A DNA stretch of 45,370 bases from an uncultured bacterium (GCA_937858275.1 CALLZK010000021.1:1-45370), one strand, 5' to 3'; shown: positions 11,231 to 17,002, counted from the stretch's first letter. Notes: generated from the letters alone by a model not told the origin. Program-made: numbers and translations.

Positions 11231-13654
11231 TTAAATTTGTGTTTTGTTTTTATATTTTTCTGTAACTATATACCAAGAAATATTATCTTTTTCACCTTTT
11301 TTTGGAAACTTAAAATATCGAGTAACAATATTTCCATAAGATAACATTTTTTGAAAATCAAAATCGTTCTGTGTTTGAGCGGAATAAATTCTTATTCCAT
11401 TTTCATATTCATAAAAATCATTTTCTGATTTATTGTTTGATTTATCTACGGAATCACCTGAACCTGCTTCTAATTTTGATCGTAAAAATCTTTCAACAAT
11501 TTTTTCTTGTGACCAATCACCTTCTGATTCTTTTTTTGTGACAAAGTCAAAATTCGTATCATCTCTTTCAATATTCAAAACTTCTATTTCAGCGACCGGT
11601 TTCCATTCTGTTGCAACAAAACCTCTTTCAATATAATTTGCACTAATTCCGACATGTGGATTACATTCGGCGATAATTTTTTTATCTTTCGCCATCAAAT
11701 CCAAGTCGCTCAACATCATAGCTTCGCCCAATCCAGATCCGTGGAATTGTCTATCAACATTAAAAGAAGCAAAATGAATTGTTTTTTCATTAACAGTGTC
11801 TATTCTATAAAATCCGGTTATATCGTCTTTGTATCGCAAAATTGTAAATTCTGAATCTGCATATTCCAGCGATTTTTCGAATGAATCAAGTAATATTTTG
11901 GTCAATTCTGGATATTTATCGTAATTTTCTTTATACATTTGACGCATTGTGTCGATGTCTTGTGGAGAGATTTTTTCTGGATTTATATGTCCGGTTAATT
12001 CAAAATTTTTAACATCGGAAACATTAATACTCTCACCTTTTGATTTAATATTTTTCAATGCTGATGAAAGCAAAATCATGTCTGCTTTGATCCTCTGCAA
12101 ATCTGCCAAAACTTCATCAAGTGATAATTCCAAACCATTTTCTTTTGCTTTTTTATGAGCATCAATAAAAGTTATCAAAATATCTTTGGCTTGTGACATA
12201 ACCCAAGATCTAATACTTTCTAATTCAACCTTATCAGTAATTTGATTATTTAATTCGGCATTGATGAAATTTTCTATATTATATGACTGATCGACAATAT
12301 CTGAATACTTTTTAAACAAAACTTTTGCAGAATCTGGATAATTTTTAGCAAAATCAAAAATTACATCTCCATCTATATCAAAAAAATCAACAGACAAAAA
12401 ACATCTAACACCCGTTGTTCCAAATTTTTTTACAAAATTCAATATTTCATCTTTATTTTTTTGGGAAAGTAAAACTCCAAAAAGAACCATTTGCTCTTCC
12501 CATTTAATGTCTCCCAAACTTAATCCCGCTTCCTTCATCATTGGTCTAAAAACATTCATCTGATATGACTGATCGTTTAATGCTACAAGCCTAGAAGCAT
12601 AATCAGAGTCACTTTCATTCTTCTTTCTTTGACAAAAAACATCTGGTTTATATGGAATAATTCTACCATCCATAAAATCCGCACCGAAATTTGCTTTCCT
12701 AACAACATCTGCTTGGCTAAATCCTTGTAAAAGAAGCGGTTGATATAGGTTTTCAATCTCCTCTTTTGTGGCCAAGCTAAAATATGCAATGAGCCTCAAA
12801 TCACCACCGTGTACTGATTCGAAAATACCAACTGTGTTTTTATCTAAGCTGGCCATTTTTTGATTTTCATTCCTCTCAATAGATGTTCCAACAAAATTAT
12901 TTCTACCAATATAATAGTTCGCATACCCATTTACTCCACTAAAAGAGATATATGGTTTATCACCCAAAGGTTTTACTTTATATATAAAATCTTCTTCTTT
13001 TATATTTGTACCTGGATCAAAATCTGTTTCATTAAAAACACCTGCATTAATTAATTTTTTTGCATATTTCCTTATAAAAGAATTTGGTTTATGAGAGAAT
13101 TTTTCACCCTTTATTGATGGTAAATATTGATAATTAGACTCCTTGAGATATCTTGCGGATAATTTTCTAATCGAACCATCTTTATCATTTACTAATAAAT
13201 TTCCGGTTTTCTGATCTCTATAGACCCCGAGATCATTGAGCATTTTGGCTAAAAATAATTCCACAATAGAAAAAGCAGACCCATCTTCTAATATTATATC
13301 CTCTGTGCTCCAACGGATAACACCAATAAGTTCTCTAAGCTCGTAGTGTCCAACAGACCAAATCCCAGATAATGCCTCCCTTTCATTTCTAGGAAAAGTT
13401 AACAAAGGGGCTTCTTTTCCATTAATACAGACCCTCTCTGAAGCCAAGTCGATTAAGAGATTAAGTAGACCCATCCCTTTATGATTCGTGGAGTTTCGAT
13501 TTTCTTTTTTTAGTGCTTCTATATTAAAATACAATTTTCCTTCTTTTTCTGATATAAGACCGATTTTTTTCGCCACAGAAAAAAAATCCTCGTTTTTTCT
13601 CTCAGAAAAGCCAACTGGTTTTTCATCACTCTCGATGGAAATATATTCTTTCAT
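11231..13654 (-). CDS. Large hypothetical protein with a C-terminal GNAT acetyltransferase-like domain
   Basis: 809-aa ORF (ATG at 13654, TTG at 13660). FASFNVDRQFHGSGLGEAMM matches GNAT motif A (V..x.x.G.G.G); followed by SANYIERGF. Confidence 0.7.
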   Translation of the reverse strand: MKEYISIESDEKPVGFSERKNEDFFSVAKKIGLISEKEGKLYFNIEALKKENRNSTNHKGMGLLNLLIDLASERVCINGKEAPLLTFPRNEREALSGIWSVGHYELRELIGVIRWSTEDIILEDGSAFSIVELFLAKMLNDLGVYRDQKTGNLLVNDKDGSIRKLSARYLKESNYQYLPSIKGEKFSHKPNSFIRKYAKKLINAGVFNETDFDPGTNIKEEDFIYKVKPLGDKPYISFSGVNGYANYYIGRNNFVGTSIERNENQKMASLDKNTVGIFESVHGGDLRLIAYFSLATKEEIENLYQPLLLQGFSQADVVRKANFGADFMDGRIIPYKPDVFCQRKKNESDSDYASRLVALNDQSYQMNVFRPMMKEAGLSLGDIKWEEQMVLFGVLLSQKNKDEILNFVKKFGTTGVRCFLSVDFFDIDGDVIFDFAKNYPDSAKVLFKKYSDIVDQSYNIENFINAELNNQITDKVELESIRSWVMSQAKDILITFIDAHKKAKENGLELSLDEVLADLQRIKADMILLSSALKNIKSKGESINVSDVKNFELTGHINPEKISPQDIDTMRQMYKENYDKYPELTKILLDSFEKSLEYADSEFTILRYKDDITGFYRIDTVNEKTIHFASFNVDRQFHGSGLGEAMMLSDLDLMAKDKKIIAECNPHVGISANYIERGFVATEWKPVAEIEVLNIERDDTNFDFVTKKESEGDWSQEKIVERFLRSKLEAGSGDSVDKSNNKSENDFYEYENGIRIYSAQTQNDFDFQKMLSYGNIVTRYFKFPKKGEKDNISWYIVTEKYKNKTQI

Positions 13655-13690
13655 ATTCAAAATAATAACATAAAAATTAAACAGCTCACA

Positions 13691-13813
13691 TTCACCTCAA
13701 TTACACAGACATCAATAAAAATATTAAGAAAGAGATGTTTAGAGGAGAGAGTTTTAAAAACACTCACATCCATTCCCTAAATATCTTTCTGATGTCTGTA
13801 TAATTAGGGTGAA
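13691..13813 (-). ncRNA. Candidate rod-shaped structured RNA or processing stem
   Basis: 24-bp imperfect terminal stem (13691-13714 / 13790-13813) where 2 of 3 mismatches become G-U pairs on the minus strand. Nested AAAGATATT/AATATTTTT and GGATGT/ACATCT stems; pyrimidine-rich segment left unpaired. Confidence 0.5.
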
Positions 13814-13912
13814 AATTAACTTTTTCGCCATTTTTGGCTCATCAGTCAGGACACACATCCTGAGAAAGTGGTGCGCTTTTAAACCATTGGTGCGCACCAA
13901 ACCAAAACAAAT

Positions 13913-14338
13913 TCAAAACATTTCCGTCATCTTCCTCCTTTCTAAGTCCCTCTCCCTCATTTGCAAGACGGAAGTCTTGCAACTTTTTATTTCTATTAGC
14001 AACCTCGCGGTTGCTTCTTTGATTTCCTCAATGACTTTTGGGGAAATCAAAATTTTTTTACCGTCTTCTCCGAAGACGGTTATGTGGTTTTGGCCACCCC
14101 AGGGGTGGCAAGTGAACAACACTTCTCCGGATGGAATCCGAAAAGAAATACTTCGTAGATACCTGTCATAGGTATCTACCTTATATCCCTTTTTCTCCAG
14201 AAGTTTTTCTATAATCACCTGATAGTACTGTGGATTCCCCCAGGCACTCTCTATGTTAATGATGTTATCATAATCTAATAACATCATTGACAACGCGTCT
14301 AGCGGGTTCAGCCATTTGATTAAAAATTTTGTTATCAC
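13913..14338 (-). CDS. Hypothetical protein (141 aa, no recognised family)
   Basis: GTG start preceded by a strong SD-like AGGGGAG; globular-looking composition. Confidence 0.7.
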   Translation of the reverse strand: MITKFLIKWLNPLDALSMMLLDYDNIINIESAWGNPQYYQVIIEKLLEKKGYKVDTYDRYLRSISFRIPSGEVLFTCHPWGGQNHITVFGEDGKKILISPKVIEEIKEATARLLIEIKSCKTSVLQMRERDLERRKMTEMF

Positions 14339-14624
14339 TTCTCTCCCCTAATCTGGTGTATTGTTTTGGCACACCTGTTTGAAGCCCACTATCTATCAAA
14401 CCACCACACCATGTGATGATTTGAATAAAAAGGAGAAATTTACGTATTCTCCAGTTGGCTTGTGCCACGGCCGACACCACATCGGCAACCACCACGCAAT
14501 TGAGTCTCAAGATAAGTATACTTATCCTTCCCTCATCTAGCTTTTGCGCAAAGCAACTTTGCATGTCTCACGACATTCACAAGCTGTCCCAGTTTCCGCT
14601 GGTTCGGTGATGCCTTTGGACGAC

Positions 14625-15158
14625 CTACTGGGCCGTCCGTCGACTCACAAGGTGTTTGTGCACCTCGGCCGCAACCGCGCTGTCATACAGCGGGTTATGG
14701 GTGGCACCGAAATCCGGCACCACGAGCCCCCACTTGTCGACATACTTGTCGACAGAGGTGGGATCCTCTCCGGCCTGCGCGAGTTCCCCCGCAACATCCA
14801 GAAGAGGATACGGACCGTCCCAGTCCCCGATGCACCCTTGCGAGTGCATGTCCCGAAGGAGATTACTCTCCACGGGAGTTCCCATGTGGACGACTATCTC
14901 CACACCTAACTTGTTCGCCAAGTAGAACTTGGCGAAATCGATAAGCAGAGACTCGTATGTCTCATGGGAGACGGGGAGACCACTGAGTGTGGGCAACACA
15001 TTCGTGCGAACCCACTCGTCAGTCACTGCTGTATCGGGCAAGCGACCGACAAACCGTCCAACTTCACGACCGGACTCGTCATAGACGAGTGCACCGATTG
15101 CGAAAGCACGGCCCCATAGACCATTGGTCTCGGCGTCAAAAGAAAAGATTTTTTTCAT
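14625..15158 (-). CDS. DEDDh (DnaQ-like) 3'-5' exonuclease, Rv2179c/RNase AS-like
   Basis: ExoI FDAETNG, VTDEWVRTNVLPTL and ExoIII THNPLYD. GC-rich (39/60 in 14761-14820). SD GAGG 10 nt upstream. Confidence 0.8.
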   Translation of the reverse strand: MKKIFSFDAETNGLWGRAFAIGALVYDESGREVGRFVGRLPDTAVTDEWVRTNVLPTLSGLPVSHETYESLLIDFAKFYLANKLGVEIVVHMGTPVESNLLRDMHSQGCIGDWDGPYPLLDVAGELAQAGEDPTSVDKYVDKWGLVVPDFGATHNPLYDSAVAAEVHKHLVSRRTAQ

Positions 15159-16029
15159 CTTTTCTTTTCCTCTGCATACTATTTTCCTAGTCTCCTAGGT
15201 TTTTATGCAGAGGTCCTTATGGTGCTTGACTGGGCACACCAACCCAGAGTGTTTTTGTTATAGGAAACACTCAACCATCTCAACGAACTAACAACCGAAG
15301 TGTTGTGGGCTCGATAGAAAGGAGATTTTCTTGAAATCCCCTACACCTTTTCAGGTGTGATTTAAACAGAATGAATTTATTTTTATATTACTTGTAAAAA
15401 TGCCGTCCAAATCACACCTGTCCATCTTTGTTTTGTCGAAAACCAGTTTTTAACCCGTCTCGTTTTACTACCACTAGCAAAAGATGAACTTGTGTGGATT
15501 TAATATTCAATTATCAACGAACTCCTCACCCTCTCCTCTCAATCTCATCGTGACTCTCTCCTCTTTTGGTCTGGCAAAGGGCACCTTTCCAGAAAAAATC
15601 ACACGACTTTGAGGTAGCAAGGATATTTCTAGACACAAAGAGTGGTTAATTCCTTATGTCGAGCCGATATCATTACTATTAGATACGGTTGATGTAATTT
15701 GCCTTATAGACATAGTTCCAATTCATGGCAGATGTTTGAGGCCTGGCACTTCACAGAACATTTACATCTTCAAACATAATAGGTTTAAATTTGGCTTCCA
15801 ATATTCTCTCCTCTTTGGGAAAAGTATTTCCGCAGAAAATTCACTCTCTCCTCTTTCTACACTTGCCGGCTGTAGGCACCGTCTAGATTAGGCCCGAATA
15901 TCTGTGGTCCAATCAAGATCAGACAGTGAACTTCAAATTTAACTCTATTACCTTTTAACGAACTTTTTGATGATTTGATTTTCAGACGATCGCCTCTTTA
16001 CGACCGGCATCTTTTCTTTTCATCATTCT
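15159..16029 (-). ncRNA. Candidate long structured 5' leader or ncRNA (about 870 nt, no ORF >=60 aa)
   Basis: No ORF in the track; many perfect stems (15169-15213, 15248-15271, 15352-15420, 15571-15592 and others); repeated AGAGGAGAG and AGTTCGTT motifs; lies between a consensus promoter and the exonuclease. Confidence 0.5.
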
Positions 16030-16035
16030 GAGTAT

Positions 16036-16064
16036 ATAATAGCAAAGTTTTGACAAAATGTCAA
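16036..16064 (-). promoter_or_regulatory. Near-consensus sigma70 promoter driving the island leftward
   Basis: Minus strand TTGACA (16064-16059), 17 nt, then TATTAT (16041-16036), with an extended -10 TG. Confidence 0.8.
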
Positions 16065-16217
16065 TACTATTGTGACAAATATATTAAAAATGTCAGAAAA
16101 ACCATAACTATCAACAAAAAAACCTTTATTTATATGTGGATAAGTGTCACAGAGTTGTGACAAGATGTGCTATATTTATTATATTGAATGTGTTTAGACA
16201 AAATTTATTAGACAAAT
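16050..16217. promoter_or_regulatory. Cluster of TGACA/TGTCA operator-like sites between the island promoter and the TrmB gene
   Basis: TTGACA-AAA-TGTCAA (16050-16064), TGTCAC-N6-GTGACA (16145-16162), TTAGACAAA twice, and TGTGGATAA at 16135-16143. Confidence 0.55.
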
Positions 16218-16243
16218 TTACCAAAAAAATAATCACAACAAAT

Positions 16244-17002
16244 ATGCAACAAGAAATATTAAATTCCGCAGGACTTACCACAGAACAATCAAAGATATAC
16301 ACCACCCTATTAGAAAACGGCTCAATGCAAGCCAGAAAAATAGTCCTAAATACAGGTATAAAACGGGGATTGGTCTATAAAGCACTTGATCAATTAATAG
16401 AAATGGGTCTAGTCACCAAACACGATTCTTTAGGAAAAATAAGTGTCTTCAATCCAAATCATCCAAATTTAATTTTAAAAATTATTGAAGAAAAAAAGAA
16501 AAACCTAGAAACAATAGAGGATTCCGTAAAATCAGTTGTTGGCCAAATGACTTCTAGTTTTAATCTTTTGACCGGAAAACCAAATGTTCGATTTTATGAA
16601 GGTGAAAAAGGTTTAAAGGAAGTGCTGGACGATTCTCTGTATTCAAAATCAGAAGTTTTATCATATGCAGACCTGGAATCAATTGAGAAATTTATTCCAG
16701 AAATTAATAAAAAACATGTAGCAGATAGAAAAAAACATGGGGTAATAAAAAAGGCAATGGTTCTAGATTCTGAATTTAATAGAAAAGTAATTCAAAATTA
16801 TGACAAAGAAGTGACTAATGTTCGTTTTATGGATGTATCTGAATCAAAACCATTTCAATCACTTATGAATATTTACGATAACAAAGTTTCGTATTTGACC
16901 TTGGACACCGACAGAATGATTGGTGTAATTATAGAAGATGAACATATTGCCGAAATGCAAAGATATATTTGGGAATTTAGTTGGAAAAATGCAAAAGATT
17001 AA
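16244..17002 (+). CDS. TrmB-family transcriptional regulator (N-terminal wHTH)
   Basis: Start MQQEILNSAGLTTEQSKIYTTLLENG..TGIKRGLVYKALDQLIEMGLV; PNVRFYEGEKG; C-terminal IYDNKVSYL..GVIIEDEHIA. Confidence 0.9.
   Translation: MQQEILNSAGLTTEQSKIYTTLLENGSMQARKIVLNTGIKRGLVYKALDQLIEMGLVTKHDSLGKISVFNPNHPNLILKIIEEKKKNLETIEDSVKSVVGQMTSSFNLLTGKPNVRFYEGEKGLKEVLDDSLYSKSEVLSYADLESIEKFIPEINKKHVADRKKHGVIKKAMVLDSEFNRKVIQNYDKEVTNVRFMDVSESKPFQSLMNIYDNKVSYLTLDTDRMIGVIIEDEHIAEMQRYIWEFSWKNAKD

Follow-up and report, generated by a model that had tools for sequence, protein, structure and literature searches.

Long-range pairing between the two ends of a transcript has been described in hok/Sok type I toxin-antitoxin systems, where fold-back (fbi-tac) brings the 3'-end onto the 5'-end and controls translation. 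Small RNAs (sRNAs) of the RsaE/RoxS type are chromosomal core regulators with many targets, which are reached through UCCC-type seeds located in hairpin loops. The engineered insulator RiboJ consists of a hammerhead ribozyme and a 23-nucleotide (nt) hairpin without any conserved seed, and its cleavage standardises the 5'-end of the downstream RNA. OppZ and CarZ of Vibrio cholerae are sRNAs derived from 3' untranslated regions (UTRs) which repress their own operon (PMC7398697), and in icaR of Staphylococcus aureus an anti-Shine-Dalgarno (anti-SD) motif of the 3'UTR pairs with the Shine-Dalgarno (SD) sequence of the 5'UTR (PMC3868564). Hammerheads in prophage-like regions cluster co-directionally between variable genes and cut polycistronic RNAs (Perreault et al., 2011, PMC3088659). 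Here we describe a long hairpin RNA, the rod RNA, encoded on the minus strand of a 45,370-nt stretch of DNA from an uncultured bacterium (GCA_937858275.1, CALLZK010000021.1:1-45370; hereafter the window). Its invariant bulge is complementary to purine boxes located upstream on the same strand, and the rod directly follows a hammerhead ribozyme. The host genome (G000; other genomes, contigs and loci carry handles beginning with G, C and L) has a size of 600 kb, a completeness of 97.8% and a G+C content of 30%, and it is affiliated with Patescibacteria, tiny uncultured bacteria. The features on which the argument rests are as follows.

13691-13813, minus strand: rod RNA, a long imperfect hairpin of about 52 base pairs (bp) whose apex holds GAG, a mini-hairpin, CUC and an 8-nt bulge; 75.6 bits with covariance model R1 and 67.8 bits with R2
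13741-13752, minus strand: seed ACUCUCUCCUCU, sharing most of its length with the unpaired bulge UCCUCUAA (13746-13739); invariant alignment columns
15843-15854, minus strand: purine box 1, AGAGGAGAGAGU, in the leader; 12/12 seed complement; duplex -20.5, net about -10 kcal/mol
15803-15814, minus strand: purine box 2, AGAGGAGAGAAU; 11/12 seed complement; net about -11 kcal/mol
15553-15564, minus strand: purine box 3, AGAGGAGAGAGU; 12/12 seed complement; net about -8 kcal/mol
15528-15539, minus strand: purine box 4, AGAGGAGAGGGU; 11/12 seed complement, or 12 bp with one G-U pair; net about -9 kcal/mol
14341-14351, minus strand: SD region of the gene for a 141-amino-acid (aa) protein, UUAGGGGAGAG; 11 bp with the seed including one G-U pair; -19.9 kcal/mol
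13817-13871, minus strand: type III hammerhead; 37 bits with RF00008; E 1.1e-5 (region scan) and 5.5e-7 (per genome)
13870-13898, minus strand: hairpin GGUGCGC...GCGCACC abutting the 5' side of hammerhead helix III, in the minimum free energy (MFE) fold of 13640-13930

A preliminary description of the locus had drawn an analogy with hok, and the proposed pairing of 3'- and 5'-terminal transcript parts in control of translation is indeed common to both. The analogy fails in other respects, and membership in the hok/Sok family was rejected: the window holds no small hydrophobic toxin open reading frame (ORF), no antisense Sok-like gene and no mok frame, the micro-ORFs of the leader are not conserved, the 3' partner would be cut off by the ribozyme, and the cargo, which is variable among genomes, consists here of a 177-aa nuclease-like protein and a 141-aa orphan. 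Like the RsaE/RoxS sRNAs, the rod RNA exposes a pyrimidine-rich seed against purine-rich SD-like sequences; unlike them, it carries a seed of 11-14 nt in an asymmetric bulge, and its targets are genetically linked. RiboJ likewise has a hairpin immediately 3' of a hammerhead and a gene downstream of both, and it differs from the rod units in having no complementary partner upstream. With OppZ and CarZ the rod RNA would have in common its derivation from the distal end of an operon, a seed directed against an upstream site of the same operon, a feedback on its own synthesis and a terminator end. OppZ and CarZ owe their release to RNase E and work with Hfq, whereas the rod RNA has a predicted self-cleaving hammerhead at its 5' boundary; it differs also in its 120-200-nt rod and in having repeated boxes of a non-coding leader as targets. 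As in icaR and in Bacillus subtilis hbs (PMC5737220), a C/U-rich anti-SD-like motif 3' of the coding region faces an SD-like purine motif at the 5'-end. In icaR, however, the SD that is blocked is a real one and the pairing takes place in cis, in a single short monocistronic mRNA, whereas the partners in rod units lie 0.9-11 kb apart, often with a ribozyme between them, and most boxes serve no ORF. The clustered bacterial and prophage hammerheads (RF00008) are likewise canonical type III ribozymes between co-directional, variable, mobile-element-like genes, with 2-4 in tandem in the relatives studied here. Known in this position since 2011, they have been given no role past 'cutting polycistronic RNA' (PMC3088659), whereas here a subset sits at the exact 5' edge of a conserved non-coding RNA, an adjacency which gives them a testable role. 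By analogy, the rod RNA appears to resemble a 3'-end autoregulatory sRNA or a device for 5'-3' UTR pairing rather than a hok relative, and its ribozyme looks like an ordinary type III hammerhead. What is new is the RNA family itself and the tripartite arrangement in which variable cargo is set between a purine-box leader and a ribozyme plus rod.

The rod RNA and its exposed bulge

The arms of the inverted repeat were located at 13679-13738 and 13766-13825. When the RNA of each strand was compared with 200 dinucleotide shuffles, the minus-strand rod reached -55.3 kcal/mol (shuffle mean, -24.6; z = -9.1), and the plus-strand rod -41.7 kcal/mol (z = -6.6). As the plus strand is the less stable one, the rod structure uses G-U pairs present on the minus strand only. 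The rod was found to be almost wholly paired except for the 8-nt bulge UCCUCUAA, whose probability of being unpaired was 0.95-1.0 in the ensemble. The CUC on the 5' side of the bulge pairs with the invariant GAG and had a probability of being unpaired of 0.06-0.17, and opening of the full 12-mer at 13741-13752 was calculated to cost 3.9 kcal/mol.

Homologues were searched by BLAST against 60 relatives, then with a covariance model of the rod apex (R1), then with a model rebuilt from eight rod sequences (R2), and finally by a pattern scan of all GTDB. BLAST of the region matched the apex in G024, of the same family, and in G059, of another family; both rods are long and carry the same GAG, mini-hairpin, CUC and bulge. 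R1 added rods in G132, G276, G232, G279 and G171, and R2 raised the number by nine, all from further orders of the class, giving homologous rods in 17 genomes of Parcubacteria type from several orders. Eleven records matched AWCTCTCTCCTCTAAACAYC in the GTDB scan, and R2 gave 43-63 bits for nine of these. Its matches include metagenome-assembled genomes (MAGs) named Parcubacteria, Azambacteria, Nomurabacteria and Saccharibacteria, and it contributed five members beyond the 17, two of which are from Saccharibacteria.

It is clear from the alignments that the apex of the family is made of GAG, a variable hairpin (10-95 nt), CUC and the bulge UCCUCUA(A/G); the window rod has this apex, and its columns are invariant. 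The seed core CUCUCUCCUCUA was present in 16 of the 17 members, the remaining one having CUUUCUCCUCUA. In the eight-sequence alignment 90.3% of cells pair, as against 44-62% with slid partners. Within the main helix 8 of the 12 pairs change on both sides, a covariation score reached in none of 500 shuffles, and the GAG/CUC helix never varies. The sense strand was more stable than the antisense strand in every one of the 17 rods (G-U pairs, 217 vs 89). A U-tract or a separate intrinsic terminator lies 3' of most rods; in the window a U-rich stretch is found there, and then a gene start. These results support three points of the preliminary description, namely that the rod is an RNA-level element of the minus strand, that it leaves (CUC)UCUCCUCUAA largely unpaired and that this exposed CU-rich stretch is the functional part. 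The bulge is open in the ensemble instead of being paired inside the rod, and it is the sole sequence invariant across at least 17 homologous rods.

The family was present in about 2-3% of sampled genomes and is thus too sporadic for a housekeeping RNA. Rods are flanked by rplS and tRNA genes in G059 and G279 and lie between yebC and ruvB in G132 and G276; with flanking genes differing in this way among genomes, the rod RNA is not the leader of one particular gene. No Rfam 15 family matched any of the rods beyond chance microRNA-like matches. Among the candidates considered, a repeat or miniature inverted-repeat transposable element was rejected on the ground that the rod is single-copy in its genome. 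6S RNA was rejected on account of the absence of any RF00013 match in the genome at E ≤ 10, the lack of a large central bubble in the rod and the sporadic occurrence of the family. Signal recognition particle (SRP, 4.5S) RNA was set aside on similar grounds, the genome having no RF00169 match and the rod no helix 8 motif (GNAR tetraloop, AGCA loop). An integron attC site was also rejected: the nearest strings, AATTAAC and GTTAATT, both miss the R''/R' consensus (RYYYAAC ... GTTRRRY), and the G-U asymmetry points to RNA. Conservation by way of the cargo proteins does not apply either, homologues of the 141-aa protein being found in 0 of 60 relatives and those of the 177-aa protein in 4 of 300 genomes of the order. 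We hold with high confidence that the rod RNA is a real, new and previously undescribed family and that its linkage to the boxes described below holds. As a side observation, it is odd that a genome of this completeness yields neither 6S RNA nor small SRP RNA (RF00169) at E ≤ 10; a regular expression for the SRP helix 8 motif also returned nothing convincing in G000.

Purine boxes and a hammerhead linked to the rod

Five matches to the seed with at most one mismatch were obtained in the window against 0.09 expected, and the whole genome contains seven. The exact 12-mer occurs three times in 600 kb, always in this island. The duplexes of the seed with the four boxes were calculated at -17 to -20.5 kcal/mol, and a net -8 to -11 kcal/mol was left once both partners had been opened. 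The perfect 12-nt complementarity of 13741-13752 to 15553-15564 and 15843-15854, reported in the preliminary description, was confirmed and joined by two further sites of 11/12; the pairing reported with the SD of the 141-aa gene was also found, over 11 bp and not over the 9 nt stated (one G-U in either case). This last site is the only real SD, and the other motifs lie in a conserved non-coding leader. The leaders of G024 and G232 have a box at the position homologous to that of box 1. The boxes were also considered as ribosome-binding sites of micro-ORFs, and this was rejected: comparison of the window with G024 and G232 showed different frames behind homologous boxes, which excludes a role as ribosome-binding sites of conserved peptides.

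When the pattern TAGAGGAGAGAG was searched with at most one mismatch over seven rod-bearing genomes, the window, G232, G024, G279 and G276 had box copies other than the rod itself, located upstream of it and sharing its contig and strand. Matches were then counted at the 17 oriented rod loci, upstream and over 35 kb downstream, on both strands. Upstream there were 19 on the rod strand and two on the opposite strand; the 35 kb downstream held none on either strand, and the reversed pattern used as control gave five matches. The complementarity noticed earlier at this locus is thus conserved, strand-specific and linked, and no local accident. Longer flanks added units in G745 and G562, and a Saccharibacteria MAG added another. 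Box-like matches that are unlinked to the rod (G059, G132, G276, G232) have no leader homology and look like chance.

From 5' to 3', a unit comprises a conserved promoter, a leader with 1-4 boxes AGAGGAGAGAG, 0.8-11 kb of variable cargo, in some cases a hammerhead, the rod, and a U-tract or terminator. The window, G024 and G232 have in common a divergent TrmB-like gene, a promoter TTGAC...TGCTATnnT and a leader of 700-870 nt with boxes at matching positions, and the box context AAGACAAUCUUUAGAGGAGAGAGUC is common to G276, G279 and the Saccharibacteria MAG, with a similar one in G682. The gene content between leader and rod was unrelated among genomes. In L096 (G772:C62; reverse complement) a purine box preceded by TATTAT lies at 468, about 80 nt downstream of the rod motif at 386, which suggests that a head-to-tail order of units is possible.

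A permissive Rfam scan of 13400-16300 revealed the hammerhead, which had been overlooked in the preliminary description and which ends 3 nt upstream of the rod. Its minus-strand sequence reads CCACUUUC/UCAGGAUGUGUGUCCUGA-CUGAUGA-GCCAAAAAUGGC-GAAA-AAGU. All core positions of the ribozyme (C3-U4-G5-A6-N7-G8-A9, G12-A13-A14 and H17) are present within 13817-13871, as CUGAUGA, GAAA and C17. Helix I (UCAGGA-UGUGUG-UCCUGA, 6 bp, followed by the CUGAUGA core) and helix II (GCCA-AAAA-UGGC, 4 bp, followed by GAAA) are closed by loops and appear in the MFE fold; helix III (ACUUU/AAAGU, 5 bp) is open, and the A15.1-U16.1 pair is formed. C17 is at 13864, and the cut is predicted between 13864 and 13863. 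The hairpin at 13870-13898 would then become the 3'-terminal hairpin of the upstream fragment after cleavage.

A canonical hammerhead within 60 nt upstream of the rod was found in four units, those of the window, G279 (31.8 bits), G774 and the Saccharibacteria MAG. The G774 copy, parsed by hand as CUGUU-C-UGCC...GGCA-CUGAUGA-GUUCCGC...GCGGAAC-GAAA-ACAG, went unreported by RF00008 at E ≤ 0.1. Decayed copies precede the rod in G682 and in a Moraniibacteriota genome. Hammerheads are rare, and hence their adjacency to the rod is not due to chance: at the same E-value, RF00008 gave 26 matches of 31-46 bits in 11 of 61 related genomes, all under the gathering score, and none in 14 control genomes. 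The hammerheads of the relatives form co-directional clusters of 2-4 with a spacing of 0.5-3 kb, and many have a similar hairpin abutting their 5' side. In about 16 of 28 cases a long hairpin lies within 30 nt on the 3' side, often with a boxA-like spacer GAUCUUUGAAAA in between, so that a hammerhead plus hairpin constitutes a recurrent module. These hairpins, too, are usually more stable on the sense strand, and they share no sequence with the rod. The idea that the rod is one such generic hairpin was rejected, as the conserved apex is missing from all of these hairpins and R1 detects none. A second, cargo-flanking hammerhead, as expected for a circular RNA or a retrozyme-like element, was likewise discarded, the window and its genome having a single hammerhead. 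Among the papers searched, none links hammerheads with Patescibacteria or the Candidate Phyla Radiation (CPR).

Two further observations concern the ribozymes of the relatives. The close homologue of the window hammerhead was found in the same-genus genome G001, where L038 (G001:C8; 2622-4290, minus) holds three tandem type III hammerheads, each preceding a gene, the last of which is pyrG; they adjoin a divergent TrmB-like gene as in the window, without rod and without purine-box leader. The spacers just 3' of many hammerheads (L013-L037) resemble the Firmicute-type rrn boxA (GAUCUUUGAAAA / GUUCUUUAAAAA / UGCUCUUUUAAAA), and together with the long hairpin they form a nut-like arrangement.

Proposed function and its alternatives

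We propose, with a probability of roughly one half and with moderate confidence in the function, that the rod RNA ends the cargo operon, is freed by the ribozyme and pairs with the leader of its own operon, acting as an autoregulatory sRNA made from the operon end. Its seed is complementary to sites in its own operon, as in autoregulatory sRNAs derived from 3'-ends. As judged from the sequence, minus-strand transcription would start from the promoter at about 16036-16064 and pass through the leader and the two cargo genes into the rod. Cleavage by the hammerhead at 13864/13863, which we infer to take place in vivo, would split the cargo mRNA with its protective 3' hairpin from the ribozyme body and rod RNA, and the released product would be a discrete RNA bounded by the ribozyme cut at its 5'-end and by the terminator at its 3'-end. 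Through the invariant bulge within ACUCUCUCCUCUAA, the rod would pair with two kinds of site, the purine boxes of the leader of its operon and the SD of the 141-aa gene. Most of this pairing would take place in trans, once the rod RNA has been released, with other or nascent transcripts as partners; some may take place in cis while the transcript is still uncut. The fate of new transcripts would thereby depend on how much transcript has been completed, and the regulatory outcome may be a block of translation, RNase cleavage of the duplex or premature termination. The preliminary description had left a choice between fold-back inhibition on the same transcript and a trans-acting sRNA. The latter fits better. 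A canonical hammerhead would sever the rod from the upstream transcript and make a permanent cis fold-back unlikely in the window; pairing in cis alone is less likely in any unit with an intervening ribozyme and possible in units without one.

A broader form of this proposal is put forward tentatively, as one that could well turn out otherwise. The rod and the purine-box leader would be two RNA 'bookends' of a mobile variable-cargo unit widespread in Patescibacteria (Parcubacteria, Saccharibacteria); the hammerhead would mature the 3' bookend, and the small RNA would pair with the 5' bookend and set expression. If this is true, making the 5'-end of a regulatory RNA would be the first defined biological job of a bacterial hammerhead, and a new RNA-only control logic would exist for horizontally moving genes in hosts with minimal protein regulators. 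A conserved RNA-RNA pair does bracket horizontally acquired cargo in regulator-poor genomes of about 0.6 Mb, which suggests RNA-based control of foreign genes in the CPR. The pair is short, modular and invariant and is therefore directly testable, and it could serve as a natural ribozyme-plus-hairpin insulator part.

A number of observations weigh against the autoregulatory sRNA. In the flanks examined, about 5-7 of the 17 rods (e.g., G059, G132, G774, G631) are without a box, and the single box matches of G661, G542, G171 and G535, lying in or antisense to coding sequence, may be due to chance. The sole seed variant (CUUUCUCC, in G631) has no matching box within 12.5 kb. The main weakness is that seed and boxes are both invariant: no compensatory change proves the pairing, and the two sequences may instead be held constant by another partner, for instance a protein or the ribosome. 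The raw duplex energy is just about 3.6 standard deviations better than that of a shuffled apex. The window hammerhead scores 37 bits, below the RF00008 (Hammerhead_3) gathering score of 48.5, and its 5-bp helix III is weak and A-U-rich. In the window and in G024 a co-directional gene follows within about 35 nt, making the rod a 5'UTR element there as well, not a 3'-end in the strict sense. Between the two cargo genes, an intrinsic-terminator-like hairpin GGAGAAUACGUAAAUUUCUCC followed by the U-run UUUUUAUU at about 14425-14452 (minus), which resembles the pre-hammerhead hairpin of G171, may stop many transcripts short of the rod. Finally, the public sequencing runs carrying the region were DNA runs only (activated sludge), and no RNA run was among them.

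Closure of the transcript in cis is unlikely, although it survives best among the alternatives: the bulge would pair with the leader boxes of the same molecule before or without cleavage and loop the mRNA, which would be stabilised or silenced in translation. Boxes and rod always share one strand, with the boxes upstream, and in G276, G279, G682 and the Saccharibacteria MAG a single box near the transcript start allows an end-to-end pairing of 12-14 bp, for which icaR (PMC3868564) and hbs (PMC5737220) are precedents. In the window and at least three other units, however, a canonical hammerhead lies between the partners, and fast self-cleavage would separate them. Distances of up to 11 kb between partners, four boxes for one seed in the window and the absence of a toxin ORF also speak against such closure.

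That the rod is a structural module only, either a 5' cap or insulator of the hammerhead-released RNA or the terminator of an antiterminated (boxA) operon, with a box match devoid of pairing function, is quite unlikely. A cap or terminator needs no invariant bulge of 11-14 nt, kept across classes while the stems change freely, and the recurrence of its exact complement upstream, specific in strand and side, would be left unexplained. Such a module would nevertheless account for the long, unrelated hairpins within 30 nt 3' of about 16 of the 28 hammerheads of the relatives, often past a boxA-like spacer, and for the U-tract or terminator 3' of most rods, and the synthetic insulator RiboJ, a hammerhead with a hairpin, works in this manner.

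A protein- or ribosome-directed RNA is improbable. Here the bulge would mimic the 16S anti-SD or bind a conserved protein, the boxes would bind the 30S subunit or the same factor, and their complementarity would be a by-product. The invariance of both sequences, without covariation, suggests a constraint beyond mutual pairing, and the GGAG of the box and the CUCC of the seed are like SD and anti-SD (probable 16S tail ...CACCUCCUU). Conservation nevertheless covers 11-14 nt on both partners, well past the 4-5-nt SD core, and the only candidate protein conserved in the units is the TrmB-like DNA-binding regulator, found in three units only.

Inverted protein-binding or recombination sites at the ends of a mobile cassette, like attC or transposon ends, would suit the variable, G+C-richer and patchily distributed cargo and the island-like sites (tRNA genes with a serine recombinase in G279, yebC/ruvB in G132 and G276), but such a DNA-level element is highly improbable given that G-U pairs favour the sense RNA in 17/17 rods, which is unexpected for a DNA hairpin or duplex site, that neither an attC R-box consensus nor a conserved integrase was found, and that the boxes, instead of marking the outer ends, occur within the transcribed leader, with both promoter and regulator gene upstream of them.

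Leader, cargo and neighbours

The remaining features of the window unit and its surroundings are as follows.

16136-17002, plus strand: divergent TrmB-family regulator gene; adjoins the leader also in G024 (47.6% identity) and G232 (33%)
16036-16064, minus strand: promoter-like site TTGACA-17-TATTAT with TG extension; 11/12 matches; TTGAC...TGCTAT(A/C)(A/T)T in homologous units
15159-16029, minus strand: untranslated structured leader of about 870 nt with four boxes and boxA-like motifs; no conserved ORF
14625-15158, minus strand: gene for a 177-aa DEDD/RNase H-fold-like protein; cargo
13913-14338, minus strand: gene for the 141-aa orphan; cargo
13661-13690, minus strand: U-rich tract UUUAAUUUUUAUGUUAUUAUUUU 3' of the rod, running straight into the start of the 809-aa gene; a weak or partial terminator at best
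11231-13660, minus strand: gene for an 809-aa GNAT-domain protein, with its start about 35 nt downstream of the rod; in G024, too, the rod is followed by a homologue

The leader is homologous to those of G024 and G232 (blastn, 69-79% identity over the longer aligned blocks), and it gave no family match against Rfam. It is itself a large conserved non-coding RNA with homologues in L070 (2520-3140) and L069 (reverse complement, about 1880-2620), alignable in blocks such as AACCGUAUC...GAUAUCGGCU...AAUUAACCAC...AGAAAUAUCCUUGCGACCUCA, and it contains a covarying hairpin GAUGGACAGGUGUGAUUUG...CAAAUCACACCUG besides boxA-like motifs. A direct repeat of 13-17 nt (CATCTTTTCTTTT...) at 15156-15168 and 16008-16020 brackets the leader, so that the transcript has at its 5'-end a repeat of the sequence found where the 177-aa gene has its start codon.

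The cargo stretch 13913-15158 has a G+C content of about 49%, compared with 30% for the genome. Neither protein matched Pfam or the PDB, the sole match being a faint PHROG 'RNase H' for the 177-aa protein, and no homologue of the 141-aa protein was obtained from the 60 relatives. One of the four genomes with a homologue of the 177-aa protein, G171, has a hammerhead after that gene and a rod 2.3 kb further on.

Two of the island-like sites are of interest on their own. In L071 (G279:C5; 393-2063 and 16774-16960) an 11-kb unit lies between tRNA genes and carries a large serine-recombinase-like ORF at one end, which is consistent with an integrated mobile element. L072 and L073 (G276 and G132, of different families) hold a rod-containing insertion at the same yebC/ruvB site, and the G276 insertion also has a HicAB-like pair and a broken GNAT gene. 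Lastly, the spacer before the 141-aa gene of the window (about 14352-14395, minus; GGCUUCAAACAGGUGUGCCAAAACAAUACACCAGA plus SD) was found to be homologous to the spacer of an exonuclease gene in G171 (L044:4950-4996), indicating a conserved pre-gene junction element that is passed from one cargo gene to another.

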